NCBI GenBank assembly: GCA_964016885.1
Contig: OZ024747.1
Location: 9,920,001-9,984,000 of the forward strand
Direction of reading: 5' to 3'
DNA from: Eledone cirrhosa
Lineage: Eukaryota
Length of the DNA stretch: 64,000 bases
Of this stretch, positions 3,863 to 63,606 are shown piece after piece. The position numbers and the translations under genes are program-made. Numbering within the stretch: the stretch's first letter is position 1; every line of letters begins with the position of its first letter. The notes under the pieces were generated by a model, which was given only the letters and a program-made list of their open reading frames with translations, had not been told where the DNA came from and searched no databases.

Positions 3863-4087
3863 AATCTGCTTATTGGAACATAACTTAACAAAGGTTCTTA
3901 TGTGAAATCATGATGGCAGATTCACTTTACAGCACGCAATTGTTTTATTGTAGAATCAGGAGTGGTTTCGGGTGTCTTGCTGTTAAAAGGGTTAAAGATC
4001 TTCTAGATATGACCATCCTTTCATCATTGTAGGTCAGCTGACAATACATCACACAATCATGTTCACATGAACACATACCTATAAGCA

Positions 4088-7000
4088 CTACATACACACA
4101 CACACTCACACATACATACATATCACTACATATATGCACAGACTCACAGATACATACATATCACTACATATACACACACACTCACACATACATACATATC
4201 ACTACATATACATACATATCACTACATATATGCACAGACTCACAGATACATACATATCACTACATATATATACAGACTCACACATACATACATATCACTA
4301 CATATACACACACACTCACACATACATACATATCACTACATATATATACAGACTCACACATACATACATATCACTACATATATATACAGACTCACACATA
4401 CATACATATCACTACATATACACACACACTCACACATACATACATATCACTACATATACACACACACTCACACATACATACATATCACTACATACACACA
4501 GACTCACACATACATACATATCACTACATATACACACACACTCACACATACATACATATCACTACATATACATATACTCACACATACATACATATCACTA
4601 CATATACACACACTCACACATACATACATATCACTACATATACACACAGACTCACACATACATACATATCACTACATATACACACACACTCACACATACA
4701 TACATATCACTACATATACACACACTCACACATACATACATATCACTACATATACACACACTCACACATACATACATATCACTACATATACACACAGACT
4801 CACACATACATACATATCACTACATATACACACACTCACACATACATACATATCACTACATATACACACACACTCACACATACTTACATATCACTACATA
4901 CACACAGACTCACACATACATACATATCACTACATATACACACACACTCACACATACATACATATCACTACATATATATACAGACTCACACATACATACA
5001 TATCACTATATATACACACACACTCACACATACATACATATCACTACATATACACACACACTCACACATACATACATATCACTACATATACACACACACT
5101 CACACATACATACATATCACTACATACACACAGACTCACACATACATACATATCACTACATATACACACACACTCACACATACATACATATCACTACATA
5201 TACACACACTCACACATACATACATATCACTACATATACACACACTCACACATACATACATATCACTACATATACACACAGACTCACACATACATACATA
5301 TCACTACATATACACACACACTCACACATACATACATATCACTACATATACACACACACTCACACATACATACATATCACTACATACACACAGACTCACA
5401 CATACATACATATCACTACATATACACACACACTCACACATACATATCACTACATATACACACACACTCACACATACATACATATCACTACATACACACA
5501 GACTCACACATACATACATATCACTACATATACACACACACTCACACATACATACATATCACTACATATATATACAGACTCACACATACATACATATCAC
5601 TACATATATACACACACTCACACATACATACATATCACTACATATACACACACACTCACACATACATACATATCACTACATATACACACACACTCACACA
5701 TACATACATATCACTACATATATACAGACTCACACATACATACATATCACTACATATACACACACACTCACACATACATACATATCACTACATATATATA
5801 TACAGACTCACACATACATACATATCACTACATACACACACACTCACACATACATACATATCACTACATATACACACACTCACACATACATACATATCAC
5901 TACATATATACACAGACTCACACATACATACATATCACTACATACACACACTCACACATACATACATATCACTACATACACACACACTCACACATACATA
6001 CATATCACTACATATACACACACACACTCACACATACATACATATCACTACATATACACACACACTCACACATACATACATATCACTACATATACACAGA
6101 CACTCACACATACATACATATCACTACATATACACACACACTCACACATACATACATATCACTACATATACACACACACTCACACATACATACATATCAC
6201 TACATATACACAGACTCACACATACATACATATCACTACATATACACACACACTCACACATACATACATATCACTACATATACACACACACTCACACATA
6301 CATACATATCACTACATATACACACACTCACACATACATACATATCACTACATATACACACACACTCACACATACATACATATCACTACATATATACACA
6401 CACTCACACATACATACATATCACTACATATATACACACACTCACACATACATACATATCACTACATATATACACACACTCACACATACATATCACTACA
6501 TATATACACAGACTCACACATACATACATATCACTACATACACACACACTCACACATACATACATATCACTACATATACACACACACTCACACATACATA
6601 CATATCACTACATATACACACACTCACACATACATACATATCACTACATATACACACACACTCACACATACATACATATCACTACATATATACACAGACT
6701 CACACATACATACATATCACTACATATACACACACACACTCACACATACATACATATCACTACATATACACACACACTCACACATACATACATATCACTA
6801 CATATATATACAGACTCACACATACATACATATCACTACATACACACACACACTCACACATACATACATATCACTACATACACACACACTCACACATACA
6901 TACAACTCACTACATATATACACAGACTCACACATACATACATATCACTACATATACACACACACTCACACATACATACATATCACTACATATACACAGA

Positions 7001-8705
7001 CACTCACACATACATACATATCATTACATATACACACACACTCACACATACATACATATCACTACATATACACACACACTCACACATACATACATATCAC
7101 TACATATACACACACACTCACACATACATACATATCACTACATATATATACAGACTCACACATACATACATATCACTACATATACACACACACTCACACA
7201 TACATACATATCACTACATATACACACACACTCACACATACATACATATCACTACATATATACACAGACTCACACATACATACATATCACTACATATACA
7301 CACACACACTCACACATACATACATATCACTACATATACACACACTCACACATACATACATATCACTACATATACACACACACTCACACATACATACATA
7401 TCACTACATATATACACACACTCACACATACATACATATCACTACATACACACACACTCACACATACATACATATCACTACATATATACACAGACTCACA
7501 CATACATACATATCACTACATATACACACACACACTCACACATACATACATATCACTACATATACACACACACTCACACATACATACATATCACTACATA
7601 TATATACAGACTCACACATACATACATATCACTACATACACACACACTCACACATACATACATATCACTACATATACACACACACTCACACATACATACA
7701 ACTCACTACATATATACACAGACTCACACATACATACATATCACTACATACACACACACTCACACATACATACATATCACTACATATATACACAGACTCA
7801 CACATACATACATATCACTACATATACACACACACACTCACACATACATACATATCACTACATATACACACACACTCACACATACATACATATCACTACA
7901 TATATACACAGACTCACACATACATACATATCACTACATATACACACACACACTCACACATACATACATATCACTACATATACACACACACTCACACATA
8001 CATACATATCACTACATATATATACAGACTCACACATACATACATATCACTACATACACACACACTCACACATACATACATATCACTACATATACACACA
8101 CACTCACACATACATACATATCACTACATACACACACACTCACACATACATACATATCACTACATACACACACACTCACACATACATACATATCACTACA
8201 TATACACACACTCACACATACATACATATCACTACATATACACACACACTCACACATACATACATATCACTACATATACACACACTCACACATACATACA
8301 TATCACTACATATATACACACACTCACACATACATACATATCACTACATACACACACACTCACACATACATACATATCACTACATATACACACACACTCA
8401 CACATACATACAACTCACTACATATATACACAGACTCACACATACATACATATCACTACATACACACACACACTCACACATACATACATATCACTACATA
8501 CACACACACACTCACACATACATACATATCACTACATACACACACTCACACATACATACATATCACTACATACACACACACTCACACATACATACATATC
8601 ACTACATATATACACACACTCACACATACATACATATCACTACATATACACACACACTCACACATACATACATTTCACTACATACACACACTCACACATA
8701 CATAC
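4088..8705. repeat. 4.6-kb minisatellite of ~30-36-bp units (CTCACACATACATACATATCACTACA + variable TA/CA tract)
   Basis: Well over 100 near-identical units. The 1524-aa H/T/Y/I ORF arises because the unit lacks stop codons on this strand. Confidence 0.97.
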
Positions 8706-10651: not shown

Positions 10652-13600
10652 GATAATGACAGCAACATCATCGATGACAACACCAAAAAGACAACTGGTG
10701 TGCTAGATTCAACAGATATGGAAAAACTCCAAAGGAATCACAAGAACTCACACAAACTTCAGAACAACTCGCTATTGACTTGTCAAGCTTGCTTTCAGTT
10801 GACAGTTCGGAGATTTCTAATGAACTGTCACATGACTATGTTGCTAAGCGACCAAAATCTCCAGAAGATCATTCGGAGTCATCTCAGGAAACATCTTCAT
10901 CTGATTCTGATGGAGACTATCCATCAAATCAACATCTAATTCTAGAATTTGGTGTAGAAAATGATGTGAACAATAAGTGTGCCGAGGTTCTGTTGGCGGA
11001 CATTTCATCAGATGAGGTCCAACTACATTCTGAAGAGGTTCGAGAGGAGACAGATAAGGTAGCATTAATTGAACCAAATCTCTCTAAAACAATTGTTTCA
11101 GCTCATCCTATCACAGCTGAAGAACAAATCCCCACTGAAGAATTTCCAGAACATTCTCAGTGTCTCACTTTCCAAGCAACTGAAGAAATCTCTGAAGAGA
11201 ATTCCATCATAGAAACTGGAGTTGATTTCACCGAAGGTCTTCATGACAAAATGTTTGATGATGTTTCAGGATTTGTTGACAGAAAAGAAAATTTCTTTGG
11301 AATTACTCGTCAACAGATTAATAGACCTTTACTTAAGTACAGTCTTCCCATTAGCATCAGCCAGGCTGAATCTAGTCCCTCTTTACAAGAAGGGTCTCGT
11401 TGTGAAACGTCTCCAGAAACTCTAAGTTCTTATGTGGATATTTGCCAGATGAAGCTAACTGATAGTCTACTAGAGAGTGAAAATAAAGAAATATTTGCAG
11501 ACTTGTGTAAAAGCAAGGAGTGTAATGTGAACCAGCCTGTAGATTTGAGTGAATCCCAACAGGTAGATAAGAAAGTAGATAATGTCAATGTTTTGGAATC
11601 CATTGAGAAAGAATTTGATATTACTTCAGTTAGCTCTTTTGAAGAAAGTAGCGTAATAATTTCAGACAATTCTTTAAATGAGAAATCAATGTCTGACAAA
11701 TACGATTCTGAAGAGAAAACAACACCAATTACTCTTGATGAAGTGAAATCGAACATTACGGAAGATATCTTGAAAAAACAGTCAGAAGATAACTTGTCCG
11801 ATACTGAGATAAAGTTGAAACAAGAAAAACCTTGTGAAACTACTCAGACATTGTCAGAAGAATTTTACAAAGAATGTTCTGGAAGTGAATCAAGTGAAGT
11901 TGTGGCTGAGCTACCAGAAGAACTAAAGAAACAAGAAGATCAATTTACTCTTTCAGAGAAACAATGGGCAACATTAGATGAAGACCAAAGACAGGAAGCA
12001 GACATGTGTGGAAATTACAGTACCGAGAAAGAGACTGATACTGGTATAAAGAATACAGGAACCAAGAATAAAAAGAAAAAGAAACAGAAGAGAAAACCAA
12101 AGTTCTTTGCTCTTGATAATGAAATGTTAATGCAGTTTGTTGAAACAACAGCAGAATTATCCAAGGAATCTGAATTCGAATGTTCAGGCATAGATCCAAA
12201 CATATCTTCAATGGAGGAAAATGATAGTGCTATATCTAAAGACCAAATCAAAGTTCAACCTTTGGCTGATCAACAAATGGAACAATCTTTGGAAGAATTA
12301 GCATCAACTAACTTAGAAGCTGAAGACAAACTTCAAATATCTGAAGATTTGGATACTTTAAGGCAGAATAAGATCAGTTCAGAGGAAACAGAAGAACGTG
12401 ATGTGTCACATGATGCTGTCTTTGTGAATGCCATTGCTGAACAGATGTCTTCAGACGAACTGCTGGAGTCTGAGCTTACTGCAAATGTGATAGAAGAAAA
12501 TGCTGAAATAGAAGAGGTGAAGCAAGTTGTAGATAAATTAGCTGTGAGTCCTTGTAAGGAAATGCTTACTCATGAAACTGAGATCTCCTCAAGTATAGAA
12601 TTGAAGGTCAGTGAAATTATTAGTGAAGCAATCAAAGACAACACGATCAACGTTAAGTGTATAGATGAAGTCAACTTTGATTCAGCTTCAGTCCAACAAC
12701 ATGAAACATTTGTGAATGAAGCTTACACTGAGTCTTGTCAGCTTCCCAAGGAACAAACAGACATAGAGGTCGTTCAACATATTTCCGTTGACCAATTGGA
12801 GAAGAAAGGTGGACAGAAGAAGAAAAAGATTGATTTTGTAAAATGTGCCAAGATTTCAGATGTTGAGGAAACATTTACAATGTCATCCAATGTTAATTTA
12901 ACTGGTGAGTGGAACAAAGTAACTCAGCTGGAGATAGAATACAGTTCATGTCTATTGAAGACAGCAGAAGATCCAGTTCAGTTGGAGATTGACAGCATCA
13001 CTGCTCCACTGGAAACAAAGGAAAGTACGGAGATAGAAGATGACAGTACAGTTCTATTGAAGACTGAGGATAGTACAGGCTTGATGGAAACTCAAGACAG
13101 TACAGTTCTGTTGAAGACTGAGGACAGTTCAGGCTTGTTAGAGAGTGGTGATAGTACAGTTCTGTTGAAGACTGAGGACAGTACAGGCTTGATGGAAACT
13201 CAAGACAGTACAGTTCTGTTGAAGACTGAGGATAGTTCAGGCTTGATAGAGAGTGAGGACAGTACAGTTCTGTTGAAGACTGATGATAGTACATCTCAGT
13301 TGGAAACTTGGGACAGTAGTACAGTTCTGTTGGAGACAGAAACATCCAGAAAACCAGCTTTGATTTCAGAAAAAATAGATCTGGAATCAAAGATTACAGA
13401 AATTGAGCCAAAAAAGCAGTTAGAACATAAATGTGATGGTGAAACTATCGTTGCCACCAATACCACGTTGCCTGTTCAGTCAGCTGTAACAGGAGGTGAT
13501 TTAAATGTACCAGAGGAGGAAAAACCAAAGAAGAAACGAAAGAAAAGGAGATCTCCATTCTTGTATGGTGAAGACGCAATCAGTTCATCTGTTATTATAG

Positions 13601-41620: not shown

Positions 41621-43493
41621 CATCATCACCGTTTTACGTCCATTCTTCCATGCTAGCATGGGTTAGATGGGTTGTCCTGTTGTGGGCAGTGTCTGGTCGG
41701 CTGACCATGCCTTGCTCATACAGGAACTGATTTTGGCTTGGTTTCTACAGCTGGATGCCCTTCCTAACACCAACCTCATTTACAGTGAGTGCTGGGTGCT
41801 TTTTTCCGCGGCGCCTGCATGTCCACTTTAGTGTGGGCTGGGTGCTTTTTTGCCGTGGCACCTCCACGACCACTTTGCAGTGGGAGGGTGTGGGGGCATA
41901 TTGTCTATATGCTTCAGCTTGTACCCATGGGAGGTTGGGTACTCTGTATTACTGCGTGACGCCAGAGGTCACGGTCGTGTGTCTTTTATCACCTCATCCC
42001 AGGTCTTCTTGGGTCTCCCCACTCCGCGGTTTCCATTGACTTCAAGTGCTCTGCACCTTTTCATGCAGCTGTCATCCTTCATACGCATCACATGTCCATA
42101 CCAACACAACCGCCTCTCTTGCACACAGCATTTGATTCCTCCTATGCTCAGTCTCTCTCTCAATTCATTTATGCTTTGCCGTTTGCGTATATTACTATTA
42201 CACATCCATCGGAGCATGAGGCTTCGTTTCTTTCTAATCTACGCAAGTCTTCCACGGACAGCGCCCAGGTCTCACTACCATGTAACATTGCGGTTCGTAA
42301 ACACACATCATACAGCCTGCCTTTTATTTTGAGGGAGAAGCCTTTTGCAGCTAGCAGTGGCAATAGTTCCCTGAACTTCTTCCATCCCGTTCTTACCCTA
42401 GTTATTGTACTTTCTGAATACCCACCTCCGCTGCTAATTCGGTCACCTAGGTAGGAGAAGCTGTCTACTGTTTCTACAGAGCCCTCCCAGAGATTGGTGG
42501 TACTTGTTTCCTGTGGCTGTTTGCTGCCCCAGCACAGCTGCTACATTCTTAATTAAGCTTCCTGAGATCCCGCTACATCTCTTGTGTTTGCATTTGGGGC
42601 AGAGAATAGAGTTCCTACCTACACCTTTCCTACATACTGAGCAAGGCCATTTCCCTGAGGGGATCTGGGTTCTGTTTTCTCGTCTACTTACAAGGACCTT
42701 AGTCTTTGTCATGTTGACTTTGAGACCCTTTCTTTCTAGTCCCTGCTTCTAAGTTTGGAATTTCTTCTCTAGTTCTACCATAGATTCATCTATAAGTGCG
42801 AGGTCATCTGCATACAGGAGTTCCCATGGGCATCCGGTCTTAAACTCCTCCGCTATTGCCTGCAGAACTATGATGAACAGGAGAGGGCTAAGAACAGAGC
42901 CCTGGTGGACACCAACCTGTACGCTAAATTCCTCGCTATACTCATTGCTAATCCTAACTTTGCTGACTGCTCCCCTATACATGGCTTGTACAGCTTTCAC
43001 AAGCCATTCATCTACTCCTAATTTTCTAAGAGCCCACCAGATTATAACACATGGAACTCTGTCAAAGGCTTTCTCGAGATCGACGAATGCCAGGTAGAGT
43101 GGCTTACTTTTAGCTAGGTACTTTTCCTGTAACTGCCTCACAAGGAAGAGGGCATCAGTGGTGCCTCTTCCTGGTACAAACCCAAATTGCATCTCATCTA
43201 ATTTCACCCGGTCCCTAATCAACTGTGCTATTATTCTTTCTGTTACTTTCATGACCTGGTCCATCAGCTTTATACCTCTATAGTTTCCTCTATCTAGTGC
43301 ATCACCTTTACCTTTGTAGCAGTTGACAATGATGCTACTGCACCAATCATTTGGTATGACACCTTCTAGTATTACCTGGTTAACAATACGTGTGGTTATA
43401 GTGTGACCTACAGACCCAGATGCCTTCAGCATCTCGGCAGCTATACCCGATGGACCGGTTGCCTTCCCCATCTTCATATCTTTGATTACCTTC
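41621..43493 (-). mobile_element. 5'-truncated, inactivated RTE-clade non-LTR retrotransposon
   Basis: RT motifs KATGPSG, NYRGIKL, FVDLEKAFD, GVHQGSVLSP and YADD (42749-43495), then a premature TAG and frameshifts. Followed by a KWPCSVC Cys-rich segment, MLHGSETW, RLCWYGHVMRM, a 3' UTR and a (GAT)n end. Confidence 0.93.
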
Positions 43494-43634
43494 ATAAATA
43501 AATTTTTACATACCCAGATAAAAAGACAACCTTAACGGTTGGAGCTTCCTGGATAGTGACTATCCAGGAAGCTCCAACCGTTAAGGTTGTCTTTTTTTCC
43601 GGGTATGTCAATATTTATTTATAAAACAAATCTG

Positions 43635-56664: not shown

Positions 56665-57005
56665 GAGGTTAGCTTAGCCTTTCATCATTATGGGGCCCAA
56701 TAAAATAAAGCACCTGTAATGCATTGGGGTCGATTTAATCGAATTTTCCCTCTCCCCCAAAAAATTGCTGGCCTTGTGCCTAAATCAGAAACCATTATTA
56801 TTATTATTAATAGGGCGGTGGATTGGCAGAATCGGTAGAGGGTCAGACGCCATGCTTTCCAGGATAGTTACGTCCCTTTACGATCTGAGTTCAAATCCCG
56901 CCAAGGTTGACTTTGCCTTTCATCCTTACGAGGTCGATAAAATAAAGTACCAGTAATGCACTGGGTATTTGCTGGCCTTGTGCCTAAAGTAGAAACAATT
57001 ATTAT
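56665..57005 (+). mobile_element. Two tandem tRNA-derived SINEs
   Basis: A truncated copy followed by a full copy with A/B boxes and an (ATT)n tail. Confidence 0.85.
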
Positions 57006-57556: not shown

Positions 57557-57588
<32 letters not shown>

Positions 57589-57593
57589 GCCTG
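57557..57593. repeat. (GTCT)n microsatellite, 5' flank of the Tx1-like element
   Basis: Read directly from the sequence. Confidence 0.95.
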
Positions 57594-57768
57594 AGGATAG
57601 TAGACGTGTTTCATATCGCTCTGTGATTTGGAATTTTACCTGCTATATTTGTGAGTGAATTTTTTTGAATTCTTTTGTATCATTAACTCTAACCCCTAGT
57701 CTGGGACTATAGACGTAGGGTAAATATATTTTCACCCCTTTTGGGGTGAAAAAATAAATATTTCAGAA

Positions 57769-59523
57769 ATGTTTATCGATATCGTTGATAACGTTATCGT
57801 CGAAAACGATATCGCCATATTGGAAGCGAACGCCACGCCGACCAAAAAAACAAGCGGGAAAGAGGGAACAACAGTTCAAACTGTTGAACAGCCCCTCCTC
57901 TCCAATGAAAAAAAAAAGAATTTTAATTCAAATGAAAAAATTAATTTTCAAGAAAAAAATAACACCACAAATAAGGAAACCAACAACATTACAACAACAA
58001 ACACAGACAACAAAATTTCTTTTGCCCAAACACTCAGGAAAGCCACGGAATACAAACCCATTGACATCACGAACGCTAAGGAAAATTTGCTAGAGGCTAG
58101 AAAATACGTATCTTTTGGGGAGGATGGTTCTTTTACGATCAACTCCCCAGAAGAAGTGCGTCAACAGATTTACAAGAATACCGTAACCTACAGAACCATA
58201 ACCAACGAAACGAGAAAGCCAGCGCAATTGACCGAAAGTCAAATTGAGCTGGTTCTGAAAGAAATTAAAGACGACATACTCTTTATTCAAAGAGGAAGGC
58301 TGTATGCCAGCATTATGGTCCGAATGAAGGATGAAATGCTGGCTCAGAAATATTCGGTGGCACCTATAGTGTCACCACAATACACCTTCTTCCCCACATA
58401 TAAAGGAAGAAGAACACAAAGGATAAGAATGTGGAGCCCTACGCCAGAAATTAACATCTGGTCCGTCCTAACAGGATTTACCGACCTAGATAAGGACATA
58501 CTCATTTCAGCAGGGGAGTCCACCAGTGGACTGTTCGGGGGGAAAAGTCTGGAGGTTCTCTTACAGATGACACCTGAGAGAATCTCCGGAATACCCGACC
58601 GAGTGCTACTGGATGGGCGAACCTTCATAAATATCACAGTGGAAGGCAGGAGACCCTCATGTTACCACTGCGCTGGCAGAGGTCACCTGAGGACGGCCTG
58701 CCCTCTACTAACAACAAAAAAACCACTGCTACAAACACCACAACAACAAAAACAACCAGCACCACCATCACAAAAACAACAAAATACACTACCATCACCA
58801 CCAGAACGACAACAAAAACCAACACCACCACCACCACCACCACAACATCATCAACAACAGCTCAAGAAAACAACCCAAAACACGGTCCCACCCAGCCCCA
58901 CCCCACAGAACACAAATACAAAAACAGTTCATACACAACCCGGAGATATACCCCTCCCCTCCAATACGGAAGAGGAGCTCATATCGTCGGAAGACGAGGG
59001 GGCTCCCTTCCAAAAAGTGAAAAGAAAAAAACGTACACACACCACACAAACAAAAATAACCCCCCCTGACAACACAACACAGACAATAAAACGCAAACTC
59101 ACTCAACAACAACAAGCAAAAACAAACACAACAACACAAAAACTCTACACATACATAAACAAAAACAATGAAAACCTAACTTTAAAAATAGAAACCAACC
59201 CTTCGCTACAAACCGAAGGGCCGAATTTCGTAACGGCAATGGGGCTCCCTAACCTGAAAATGGTGAAAATCCCACTTGAGATTTTCAAAACTTTGAAAGA
59301 CATTTACCCTGAGGACGTGGGCCCACCCTGTACCAGGCCACTCAACCGCGTCCTCCTGAAAGGTTTTCCCCTCCCCTCCTCAAACACCCACACAACTCCA
59401 AAGATCCCAATCCCTCCACACACTAATACCCCCACACCACCACAAACCACCACCCCACCCATCAACCCCTCCACCAGCCCCATGGAAACTGAGCGACCCG
59501 AACCCCGGGACGCAGAGAGGTAA
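57769..59523 (+). CDS. Retrotransposon ORF1 (584 aa, gag-like CCHC knuckle CYHCAGRGHLRTAC, Pro/Gln/Thr-rich tail)
   Basis: Uninterrupted ORF with a CX2CX4HX4C motif, positioned upstream of pol. Confidence 0.9.
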   Translation: MFIDIVDNVIVENDIAILEANATPTKKTSGKEGTTVQTVEQPLLSNEKKKNFNSNEKINFQEKNNTTNKETNNITTTNTDNKISFAQTLRKATEYKPIDITNAKENLLEARKYVSFGEDGSFTINSPEEVRQQIYKNTVTYRTITNETRKPAQLTESQIELVLKEIKDDILFIQRGRLYASIMVRMKDEMLAQKYSVAPIVSPQYTFFPTYKGRRTQRIRMWSPTPEINIWSVLTGFTDLDKDILISAGESTSGLFGGKSLEVLLQMTPERISGIPDRVLLDGRTFINITVEGRRPSCYHCAGRGHLRTACPLLTTKKPLLQTPQQQKQPAPPSQKQQNTLPSPPERQQKPTPPPPPPQHHQQQLKKTTQNTVPPSPTPQNTNTKTVHTQPGDIPLPSNTEEELISSEDEGAPFQKVKRKKRTHTTQTKITPPDNTTQTIKRKLTQQQQAKTNTTTQKLYTYINKNNENLTLKIETNPSLQTEGPNFVTAMGLPNLKMVKIPLEIFKTLKDIYPEDVGPPCTRPLNRVLLKGFPLPSSNTHTTPKIPIPPHTNTPTPPQTTTPPINPSTSPMETERPEPRDAER

Positions 59524-59546
59524 GTGCCTCTTTCTTTGCCACCAAC

Positions 59547-62500
59547 ATGGCTGTCTTAAGAGTAGGTTGTCTAAATGCGCGTGGCCTGGGCTCACCTTGG
59601 AAGCAAGCTAAACTTCTAAGTGACCTCAGGTCACAATGTGTAAATGTGATGGTTATTTGCGAGGCCCGGATCAGCAACATGCGACAGCTAACCCCCACCT
59701 TTGATGACTTTGAGATGCACGCATCTCTCTGTCAGCCTGGAGGTGGGGGTGGGGTTGTCGTTCTGCTGCAAAAACATCTGGGTCTCGCTACACAGACGGT
59801 ACACTTGGACCCGGAGGGTCGACTCGTGGTTCTGGACCTTGGCAATGGCGAAGGCGAAGCTTTTAGGCTTGTCGCCGTATACGCCCCTTTTGGGGCAATG
59901 CGGTCGGACTTCTTCCATCGTCTGGAGACTTTTCTAGGGACGTCCCGCTCCTTGCTTTTAGTGGGGGGACTGGAATGGTATCCTAGATGCACGTTGGGAC
60001 TATGTAGGGGCATGTCCCGATAGAGGGGGGTGTAACAGCCTTAAGGGGTTAATCGGCCGATTCGACCTGGCCGATAGATACCGACTAGATTTTCCGACTG
60101 TACCAACCTGGACCTGGTCAAATAACAGTGATCAATCTAGATCGTACCTAGATAGGTTCTTAGTTAGAATTAAGGATAGGGACTTTTTAAGTTGTCCAGA
60201 AATGCTCATGGTGGGCTATTCAGACCACAAGTTAGTGACCTGCGTAGTCCACCTTGATAGAACGCATAGGCAGGGGCCCGGTTACTGGAAGCTCAACTTG
60301 TCCTTACCGGCAAGTAGAGCTTACAGGGACCGGATTAGAACCTTAGTTAAGGAGCGGTTGACGGGCGCCATCGTCAACAACAGGTGGTGGGGCTCTCTAA
60401 AAAGAGAGATTAGAGTAGTTTCAATAGGAGTTAGTAAGGAGTTAGCCTCAGATAGAAATAGGAAGGAAAGGGAGTTGGTAGTTAATGTTGAAGAGGCAAT
60501 GAGAAGCAGCAATGTGGCTAGAGTGCAAGCGTCGAGAACGGTCTTGAACCAGTTCTTCGACACGAAACACGAAGGCTGCGTTGTCCGAAGTAAAATACGT
60601 GCTATGGGAAACGAGGGGACCAAAGCTGTTAGCTGGGCCCGCGTGACAGAAGCGAAAAGTGGGATTAAATCCACTATCCGGTCTTTGCGAGACCAGGATG
60701 GACGGGTGATCCTTGAACCTAAGCAAATGTGCGAGGCCTTTCAAAGGCACTTTGCCCAATTGTTCGGGAGGGGCGGGGAGCCGGTTGGAGATGTGGATTT
60801 CGGTCCATACCTCGACGGCCTGCCGCGTCTTTCGGACAGGGAGGCGAGGTCCTGCGACGGGCCGATCTCAGCTGCTGAAATAGGGGACGTGCTGAGCCTA
60901 TGCGGCAAACGCAAATCTCCAGGACTCGATGGTCTGCCCTACGAACTATATATTAATATGCCGGACTTGTTCCCCGATCTCCTCGAGGCGGTCTACTGCA
61001 ACTGGCAACAGAACGGGAGAATTCCCTGTTCTGTGACCAAGGGCGTAGTCTCGCTAGTGAGGAAGGACGAGAACAAGGGGGATGACATTAGTAATTTTAG
61101 GCCCATAACTCTGCTAAATGCAGAGTTAAAGATTTTGGCGAAGGTGTTAGCGAAGAGGTTGGCGCTTGTCGTGGGGGGGCCTGGTGGGAGATGCGCAGAC
61201 ATGCGCTATCCCGTCCAGGTCCATCCACGACAACCTCCACCTCATGCGATACATCATAGAGAGGGTTGGGAACGAACCCGGCTTTGGTGGGGCCCTGATA
61301 AATTTAGATCAGTCTAAAGCGTTCGATAGGGTGGACCATGGTTACCTGGATGCGGTGCTAGCGGCGGCTGGGTTCGGACCCGTTTTCAGGGGCTGGATCA
61401 CTGCCATGCACAGCAGCTGCATCTGCTCTAGAGTCAAGGTGAACGGCTACCTTTCGGAGCCGTTCGAAATCACACGCTCCATCCGACAGGGATGCCCTCT
61501 CTCCTCCCTTCTGTATGTATTGGCTCTCGAGCCACTACTGCGGAAGTTGGAGTTGTTGCAGGGCATCCCTTTGGAACCGGGATTGCGCAAAGCGGTGTCG
61601 GCCTATGCCGATGACGTAACAGTAATGGTGTCGACCACCTCGGAAATCGAGGCAATCGGCACCTTACTGGAGGAGTACGAAAGGTTGACAGGGGCTAAGC
61701 TGAACCGGGACACGTCAGTCGCTTTGCAACTCGGCGAGTGGAGGGGCAAAGCGATGTCGTGCGACGGTATCGTCGGACATGGACGGAGGGCCCGGTGAAG
61801 TTGCTTGGGGTGTGGTTCGGACCGGACCTCCAGGTGGAGAAAAACTGGGGTGAGGTGACGAATAGGGTGTTTGCACTGACCCAGAAGTGGGCCGAGTGCA
61901 AACTATCCCTGAAAGGTCGGGCGGAGGTGGCGAACGCTTACATAGCGTCCGTCATCTATTACCGCTTGACTGTCGTGCCTTGCCCGGGTGAGATCCTCGC
62001 CAAAATGGAGCGCGCCCTCTTTTATTTCCTTTGGAAGAAGAGGTCTCCTCTGGTGAGGAGATCCATCTGCTGTCAACACCCTCTGAAAGGAGGGCTGGGG
62101 ATGCCGTGGCTAAAAATGCGTAAACACGCATTGAGGCTAAGGTACCTCCAGGTATTCCTCACCGGTCAACCGGTGTGGGCCCCGTTTGTGAGGCGAGCCT
62201 TCCCGAGGCTCGTCTCGCTCACCGAGCTGCAGTCCTGGGTGAAGCAAAGACCGAGAAAACTGGGCGACTGGCACATCGAGTGTGCCCAGGCGCTCACGGC
62301 TCTCTGGCAGGCGGACCCGGCTATCGACGGAGACTCCACCTCGTCATTCTATAGAGGGCTGGTGGTTAGCGGGTGCGACGACGCCCTTGGAGAAGCCCTA
62401 GGCATGGAGGAGGACGAACTGGCCAGTCTATTCGGTAGGACTTTCGGCCCGGGACCTATGGACAACTTCCAGAAGTCCTTGGCCTGGCAGTGCTACCGAG

Positions 62501-62985
62501 GGGCTCTGCCCGTTCGGGATAAGCTCTACAGACACGGGCGCCCGGGTAGGGACCCCTCGAAAAAGATCTGTCCCAGATGCGTGCGCGATGAGGAAACCGT
62601 CGCGCACGCATTGGTGCACTGCCCGGGCGTTGCCGATCTGTGGGGCTATGTCGAACAACTGCTGTCACGGGTGGGACCAATTAGGTTGACCACCGAGTCC
62701 ATAGTAACGATCAAGCCGCCTCCCCCCTTCAAAAATGAAGGAGAGGCGGTCTTCCTCTGTGTAATAGCCATGGTAAAAGAGGCTATATGGTGGACGCGTC
62801 TGAAAGGGCTGAGGTCGGACACCTTTCTCTCCGGCCAACAACTGGTCCTTTTCTTCCGATACCATTTCGGAAGAAGGATCAGGATGGAGAGAGAGGTGCT
62901 CCACTCCAGCCAGTTTTATGAAAGGTGGGTGAAAGTTGCGAGAATGGACCGTGTGAATGGGCCTTCTCTCTACCTCAGCCTGTAG
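59547..62985 (+). CDS. Retrotransposon ORF2 (APE + RT + Cys-rich domain), with three 1-nt frameshifts at about 59965, 61175 and 61779
   Basis: Motifs NARGL, VYAP, GDWN, YLDRF, SDH, GYWKLN, KSPGLDG, FRPITLLN, DQSKAFDRV, RQGCPLS, YADD, LLGVWF and CPRC..HALVHC. No in-frame stops once the shifts are corrected. Confidence 0.9.
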
Positions 62986-63204
62986 GTGGAACAGAAAGAA
63001 GGGAGCACCCTCTCTTTGTGCTCCCGTGGAGAAGGGTCACACACTTTTTTTCGGGGGTGTGTGTGACCCCAAAACGATCCCCCCCTATTGAGGACCTTCT
63101 TGTTATTTTGTTTGTTATATTTTTCTTACTCGATTTTTATGTAAACTCCCCCCACCCATGTACATGTCCCTTTCTTTTGTGCCCTAGTGGCAAATAAACA
63201 GAAA

Positions 63205-63237
<33 letters not shown>

Positions 63238-63242
63238 TTGTG

Positions 63243-63297
<55 letters not shown>

Positions 63298-63606
63298 GTT
63301 TGTGTGTCTGTCTGTCTGTTTGTCTGTCTGTTTGTTTGTGTGTCTGTCTGTCTGTTTGTCTGTCTGTTTGTGTGTCTGTCTGTCTGTCTGTTTGTGTGTC
63401 TGTCTGCTTGTTTGTGTGTTTGTCTGTTTGTGTCTGTCTGTGTGTATGTCTGTCTGTCTGTTTGTGTGTCTGTCTGTTTGTGTGTCTGTCTGTCTGTCTG
63501 TTTGTGTGTCTGTCTGTCTGTCTGTTTGGGTGTCTGTCTGTCTGTTTGTTTGTGTGTGTGTCTGTCTGCGTGTGTGAGTCTGTGTGTGCGTCTGTCTGTG
63601 TCTGTT
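63205..63606. repeat. Degenerate (TCTG/TTTG/TGTG)n microsatellite, 3' flank of the Tx1-like element
   Basis: Read directly; source of the C/L/S/V pseudo-ORFs. Confidence 0.95.

Follow-up and report, generated by a model that had tools for sequence, protein, structure and literature searches.

LINE retrotransposons of the Tx1 clade are known to insert in microsatellites, with Kibi in (TC)n and Koshi in (TTC)n of teleosts, and crocodilian families in (TTCC)n or (TTTC)n (PMC4494074). The microsatellite targets reviewed for LINEs are ACAY, AC, TC, TTC and TAA, and the basis of the repeat preference of APE-type LINEs is described as poorly understood (PMC3812793). The insect elements Waldo (ACAY, with tolerance for one variable base) and Mino (AC) resemble the family described here as APE-type elements in short microsatellites, but they have other targets and belong to the R1 clade, according to the title of a reference cited in that review (PMC3812793). 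SART1/TRAS1 and R1Bm of Bombyx are likewise repeat-targeting APE elements, in which a short RNA-target pairing improves accurate priming and of which R1Bm requires downstream target sequence. In contrast to the present family, they are members of the R1 clade with telomeric or rDNA targets, and SART1 retains poly(A) at its junction (PMC7265360). Human L1 shares its ORF2 layout and endonuclease fold with the present family, and its insertion profile is shaped jointly by nicking and primer-RNA pairing (PMC8565326, PMC1950540, PMC3649969). However, human L1 uses a TTTT/AA site and carries a poly(A) tail, whereas in the present family the pairing part of the RNA would be a repeat taken over from the target. 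In Octopus vulgaris 13 recently active L1-Tx1 families have been annotated, and the available passages of that annotation do not contain the word 'target' (PMC13282606).

We analysed an element in a stretch of 64,000 nucleotides of the Eledone cirrhosa genome (the window). Like Kibi, Koshi and the crocodilian families, its family is APE-type, Tx1-like and found in a pyrimidine-rich microsatellite, which is a tetranucleotide in the crocodilian case as well. Its target is TCTG (GACA), and that of its sister families TCTA (GATA). The original prediction spoke of a new site-specific integration system, which was overstated, since Tx1-clade targeting of microsatellites, including tetranucleotides, has already been published. 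The family is of this known kind, and the apparently new part is the TCTG target: we found no GACA or GATA target of a Tx1 element in the open literature searched, which included neither Repbase nor the supplements and the list of known Tx1 targets (Figure 3) of PMC4494074.

Structure and classification of the window copy

The features of the window copy are as follows, all on the + strand.

57594-63206, +: Tx1-like LINE copy, full length, 5.6 kb, flanked by repeats on both sides
57557..57593, +: 5′ flank (GTCT)8 GCCT G, target repeat (TRF 9.2 copies, 96% match)
57594..57768, +: 5′ UTR with the head AGGATAG, a start common to full-length copies
57769..59523, +: ORF1, 584 aa, open, with a single CCHC knuckle (58660-58701)
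59547..60267, +: APE endonuclease part of ORF2, with a frameshift near 59968 (Exo_endo_phos in the intact copy P0001)
59547..62985, +: ORF2 (APE, RT and zf-RVT), 1145 aa in intact copies, broken here
62986..63206, +: 3′ UTR with AATAAA at 63193-63198; GAAA ends at 63204 and is followed by TC
63207..63606, +: 3′ flank, degenerate (TGTC)n target array, first bases TGTCTG

The locus had been described as a complete element, which is correct for its length but not for its coding capacity, as ORF2 contains three frameshifts. Compared with an intact copy, one base has been inserted near 59968 and another near 61179, each within a run of G, and one base is missing near 61779. The flank reported as (GTCT)9 in front of the element is, exactly, (GTCT)8 GCCT G. 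This flank probably includes the target duplication and the last base or bases of the element's 5′ end. Older family copies have the head TGATAG instead of AGGATAG. At the 3′ end, the predicted passage from the element into a TCTG array without poly(A) was confirmed: GAAA extends to 63204, and the array at 63205-63606 (TRF 100 copies, 82%) directly abuts the element end. The nick would have been made between 63206 and 63207.

In the intact copy P0001, ORF2 matched the Pfam domains Exo_endo_phos, RVT_1 and zf-RVT, and its closest solved structure was human L1 ORF2p (E 3e-50). ORF1 had no Pfam match, and a search with residues 80-320 of an intact copy's ORF1, confined to proteins of near length, found no homologue. 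The endonuclease residues N10, E39, Y112, D141, N143, D202 and H227 align to N14, E43, Y115, D145, N147, D205 and H230 of L1; E39, D141 and D202 were invariant across 40 endonuclease sequences. An alignment-based model of the endonuclease (pLDDT 92) matched the fold of L1 EN with a TM of 0.84.

The layout of the element is that of the L1 group, with an ORF1, an ORF2 consisting of an N-terminal APE, an RT and a C-terminal zinc-binding motif, and no LTRs; its 5′ and 3′ ends are unique. The closest named protein was from Argonauta hians (68% identical). Identity of the RT was 35-40% with TX1-named vertebrate proteins and 27-29% with named plant L1s. In an RT tree built without Repbase references or a named animal L1, it grouped with four database-named YTX2/TX1 proteins (support 80/93). 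The family occupies its own branch relative to the TX1-named vertebrate proteins in this tree, which holds no Kibi or Koshi sequences. By this RT grouping, the element appears to be a Tx1-like LINE of the L1 group.

Several other features were observed in the window. A short interspersed repeat with ATT units at its end lies upstream of the element at 56855-57003; family copy L115 carries a 93% identical repeat as an insertion in its 5′ UTR, and in copies L141 and L183 the 5′ end is missing from roughly the position of that insertion. A 2087-codon open frame at 10678-16938 (+), rich in S, E and D, contains internal repeats of 27 and 54 bp; it had no Pfam match and probably represents a very large host exon. 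An RT fragment from another LINE, with an RVT_1 match, lies at 42752-43531 (-). A 4.6-kb minisatellite at 4071-8705 is built of 38-bp units and has an extreme strand skew.

Junctions of the family with TCTG repeats

An exact 26-nt pattern of the 3′ end gave 208 matches in the 3.0-Gb genome, and a one-base variant of this pattern gave 46 further matches. We analysed 102 copies at 73 loci, consisting of 97 of the 100 places listed among the 208 matches (two of these places were not retrieved and one was at an assembly gap) and five full-length copies on other contigs, which were selected by their 5′ end. Several copies were present at 14 of the 73 loci. In total, 86 of the 102 copies were full length, including a third entry for L131 that was chained to its neighbour's head; apart from the five copies picked by their 5′ end, sampling by an exact 3′ end favours young copies, not long ones. 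Such a share of full-length copies is unusual for an L1-group element. Among 84 near-full-length sequences, 33 had the 1145-aa ORF2, and in 31 of these ORF1 was open as well. Young copies differed at a median of 31 sites, and the nearest sampled relative of the window copy was 65 sites away.

The check proposed with the original prediction, inspection of the flanks of genomic copies, revealed TCTG enrichment and a fixed phase in these 102 copies. After GAAA, the first base was T in 101 of the 102 copies, and the second was T in 83 or C in 16. Bases 3-8 read TGTCTG exactly in 66 copies and with at most one mismatch in 100. When one copy was counted per locus, this stretch was TGTCTG-like at 71 of the 73 loci, with G at base 4 in 70. 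As a background, TGTCTG occurred exactly at 0.04%, and with at most one mismatch at 1.2%, of 114,988 position-strands in the rest of the window. On the other side, the 5′ flank ended in phase in all 86 full-length copies (TCTG in 64, TCTT in 14, TCTC in 6 and others in two). The 14-mer TGTCTGTCTGTCTG was matched 43,855 times across the 3.0 Gb of the genome, or 7.3e-6 per position-strand; it ended 34 of the 86 5′ flanks and began 21 of the 102 3′ flanks. In TCAG-rich arrays, AGTCTG was located exactly at base 3. The distance from AATAAA to the junction was 8 nt in all 102 copies, and a run of six A within 30 nt was found in one of them. A target-specific family has been defined as one with more than 20% of its flanks of one sequence type (PMC4494074); here this applied to 100 of the 102 3′ junctions and to all 86 full-length 5′ junctions. 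The family is real, young and target-specific. Whether the TCTC variant of the leader is an inherited clade mark was also considered, and rejected: among young copies its carriers did not form a clade, at low resolution.

Some copies have only one or two repeat units downstream, and one lies inside the coding sequence of another LINE. Hence, the target is the short motif C^TGTCTG and not a long array. The latter copy, L179 (L179:6305-6445), measures 98 bp and interrupts the endonuclease gene of an unrelated LINE, which we take to be RTE-like by its motifs. It has a 16-nt duplication, and the duplicated word is present once in the uninterrupted paralogues at L352:7006 and L371:1504. A TCTA-family copy, L211, was inserted independently in the same C^TATCTG site with a 7-nt duplication. 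The two terminal bases of L211 mismatch the target, and this would fix the nick at C^T.

A TCTG-like junction would also be expected if the element itself made the repeats, as a microsatellite tail and a repeat leader, at otherwise random sites. We compared the flanks of 49 lone full-length copies, leaving aside the 22 nt adjacent to the junction. The distal flanks on the two sides agreed in their variant tetramers (cosine 0.41 versus 0.18 ± 0.03 in shuffled pairs; 0 of 2000 shuffles reached this value). Both sides thus share locus-specific repeat variants, which argues against element-made repeats, as do the empty paralogues of L179 and the presence of informative duplications. In 19 of the 102 copies, some of which are array copies made by exchange, the duplication contained two or more net informative bases, compared with 0-2 copies in 12 shuffles. 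Any informative duplication was present in 27 copies, of which six started directly after a neighbour's end. In the remaining 21, the base before the duplication was C in 20, and the base three positions before the nick was G in 12 and A in 8.

The 5′ ends were less uniform. Lone full-length copies were mostly without a long duplication. A fixed 18-nt duplication was rejected, because 9 of 160 downstream variants in lone copies recurred in that register (null 4.6). The last 8 nt of the 5′ flank were 97% pure, versus 75-90% in the matching downstream stretch. These two facts imply that part of the 5′ TCTG may derive from the element, and that the 5′ end is probably joined via short TCTG homology, with a duplication that is often shortened. 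Of 16 apparent 5′ truncations, five were internal deletions or later insertions. Among the other 11, a TCTG-type 5′ flank or a duplication was present in six, contrary to an origin of the repeats in the element; L113, L140, L164 and L179 are 5′-truncated with duplications of 12-18 nt. The remaining five (L070, L078, L130, L141 and L183) had no TCTG 5′ flank, no duplication and no 5′ remnant within 10 kb. These five, the 5′-junction bases that are purer than duplication predicts, and the base before the head, which varies by subfamily, are in line with element-made repeats. Weighed against the shared variants, duplications and empty paralogues, we consider that explanation very unlikely. The junctions, shared flank variants and duplications bear out what had been predicted: the TCTG-type repeats were there first, and the family inserts into them in phase.

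Empty alleles were sought in six runs, three from one sample and three RAD-seq. No joint skipping the element was present among the matches listed for the window's 5′ junction and for L110, where masked repeats make the result uninformative either way. For two copies on small contigs, the assembly contained no allelic match to the flanks.

Arrays of copies and a proposed route of insertion

Of 19 direct neighbours, 12 differed at 22-106 sites, like unrelated copies, and seven were near-identical or mosaic. These numbers imply sequential insertion plus unequal exchange. In a train of nine copies at G000:C3:358.73-358.78 Mb near-identical members alternate, a sign of unequal exchange atop sequential insertion. 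Five loci (L050, L058, L096, L165 and L193) are compound (TCTA)n(TCTG)n arrays that hold TCTA- and TCTG-family copies together, in the same orientation.

The multiple occupancy of 14 of the 73 loci and the seven near-identical or mosaic neighbours would also be compatible with random insertion, followed by persistence or multiplication in repeat-rich regions through selection and unequal exchange. However, that explanation is contradicted by the single-base phase at 71 of the 73 loci. Moreover, the 12 divergent neighbours are as different as unrelated young copies, and the sister families choose the other repeat in the same compound arrays. We give random insertion almost no credence.

The leading array copies L098, L160, L142 and L128 had duplications of 123, 112, 58 and 74 nt, respectively, with 0-1 mismatch; those of 123 and 112 nt were not periodic. 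The 58-123 nt duplications span exactly the distance from the nick to the 5′ end of the resident copy. They would fit annealing of the cDNA end at the TCTG junction of the resident copy. Copying of the neighbour's 5′ end was rejected as their cause, because the neighbours differ from position 20 or 56 on.

Judged from sequence comparisons, we consider it quite likely that the whole is explained by a recently active family in TCTG phase with TCTA ancestry, which would insert by TPRT at C^TGTCTG and in which endonuclease and RNA together would bring about the switch between G and A. In this route the APE endonuclease would nick the purine-rich strand at 5′-CAGACA/GA-3′. Messenger RNAs are cleaved 10-30 nt after AATAAA. 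With only 8 nt between this signal and the junction, cleavage would fall within the repeat that follows the element, so that a few UGUC units would become part of the mRNA. These units would pair with the freed primer end, and reverse transcription would start upstream of the poly(A), which would explain why the copies are tail-less. A nick at this site combined with UGUC priming would explain the fixed phase, the lack of poly(A) and the position of AATAAA. In L1, RNA-primer pairing adds to nicking (PMC3649969), and short RNA-target pairing aids accurate priming in SART1 and R1Bm (PMC7265360). To join the 5′ end, the cDNA end would anneal with a TCTG unit on the other strand, yielding duplications of ~6-18 nt at lone sites and of up to 123 nt where a resident copy lies downstream. 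Each insertion would leave a fresh target, leading to head-to-tail stacks, some of which would be expanded by unequal exchange.

Sister families and the base that separates their targets

Related 3′ ends were found 9,876 times in the genome for families D-F, 3,676 times for B and 748 times for B2. In the first 30 copies of each of these sets, G was present at base 4 in 0 of 90 and TATCTA was exact in 68 of 90, compared with base-4 G at 70 of the 73 TCTG-family loci. One of the first 30 D-F copies was inserted in (ATT)n. Family B contains intact 1145-aa ORF2s, with an endonuclease 89% identical to that of the TCTG family. At 30 loci with the one-base variant of the 3′ end, base 4 was G in 25 and A in three. 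Two of these three, L324 and L345, combine the family 3′ end with an 85%-identical, sister-type body and pure TATC flanks. A more distant relative (L229/L278, G000:C1:17.0 Mb), with an endonuclease 58% identical, resides in (ATT)n.

Endonuclease and RT trees were constructed from single natural copies, with the ATT copy as root. The TCTG clade nested within the TCTA families as the sister of B2 (EN 0.96, RT 0.98); support for the TCTG clade itself was 0.73 and 0.86, respectively. The topology indicates that the TCTG family arose from TCTA-targeting ancestors, and the pair of families probably reflects a recent switch of the landing site by a single letter.

Ten endonuclease changes map to the stem of the TCTG clade: M22K, G104E, G113A, S117A, P120S, S164N, R/A191T, K218E, M233V and N235H. 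The endonuclease changed at 10 of 240 positions, versus 17 of 420 in the RT, in a count that excluded L208, whose entry in the RT tree carried the RT of a neighbouring element. Hence, the endonuclease shows no excess of change on the stem. Two loops clamp the cleaved strand in L1 EN (PMC8565326). In the alignment to L1 EN, G113A, S117A, P120S and R191T are in or beside these loops, with residue 191 in the hairpin and 113-120 flanking the second clamping loop; the loop windows were selected after the stem changes had been seen. No hairpin residue was diagnostic of TCTG versus TCTA targets, as H193, Q196 and S/T191 occurred in both target classes. A candidate hairpin code, S191/N193/Q196 versus A/R/S, was undone by families B2, B3, C and F. 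Grafts of loops between distant endonucleases have not transferred specificity cleanly (PMC1950540, PMC8565326).

Specificity had been attributed to the APE endonuclease. That it would be the only determinant finds no support here: the discriminating G is on the primer side of the putative nick, where read-through RNA could pair, and the TCTG and TCTA families cannot be told apart by any hairpin residue. The mRNA-borne copy of the element's own downstream repeat, and not the endonuclease, might instead select TCTG over TCTA, a reading that we regard as doubtful. If true, target identity would be a self-copying guide that a single landing event could switch. Less probable still, in our view, is a scenario in which both endonucleases nick either repeat, the read-through RNA tail alone passes on G or A, and a source copy that had landed in TCTG founded the family.

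This scenario agrees with the primer-side position of the discriminating bases, with G at base 4 at 70 of 73 loci and A at both bases 4 and 8 in none of the 102 copies, but in L1 EN the shape of the strand upstream of the nick is recognised as well (PMC8565326). The TCTG family takes A at base 4 in 10 of 102 copies, as a G-T wobble would allow, and the sisters never take G (0 of 90). However, the wobble pattern could equally arise if TCTA arrays are commoner, and in matched sets the asymmetry was not significant (13/15 versus 9/15, Fisher p 0.21). Also in favour of the scenario, both families used the hybrid site C^TATCTG, and the third base before the nick can be G or A (12 and 8 of 21); conversely, the target has been kept by lineage across all sampled subfamilies. 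Finally, the lack of a stem excess and of a diagnostic hairpin residue is in favour of the RNA tail, whereas in site-specific APE elements the endonuclease is reported to be the main determinant. Most likely, the replacement of A by G would depend both on RNA pairing and on changes in the endonuclease next to its DNA-binding cleft.

In this genome, GACA and GATA microsatellites become landing pads for stacks of LINEs. The main value of the finding is a matched pair of families that differ by one target base: one genome holds two ORF-bearing groups with endonucleases 88-90% identical, targets one base apart and a direction of the switch that can be read from the tree. With such a pair, some ten substitutions and a pair of RNA tails would suffice for a direct test of endonuclease versus RNA pairing.
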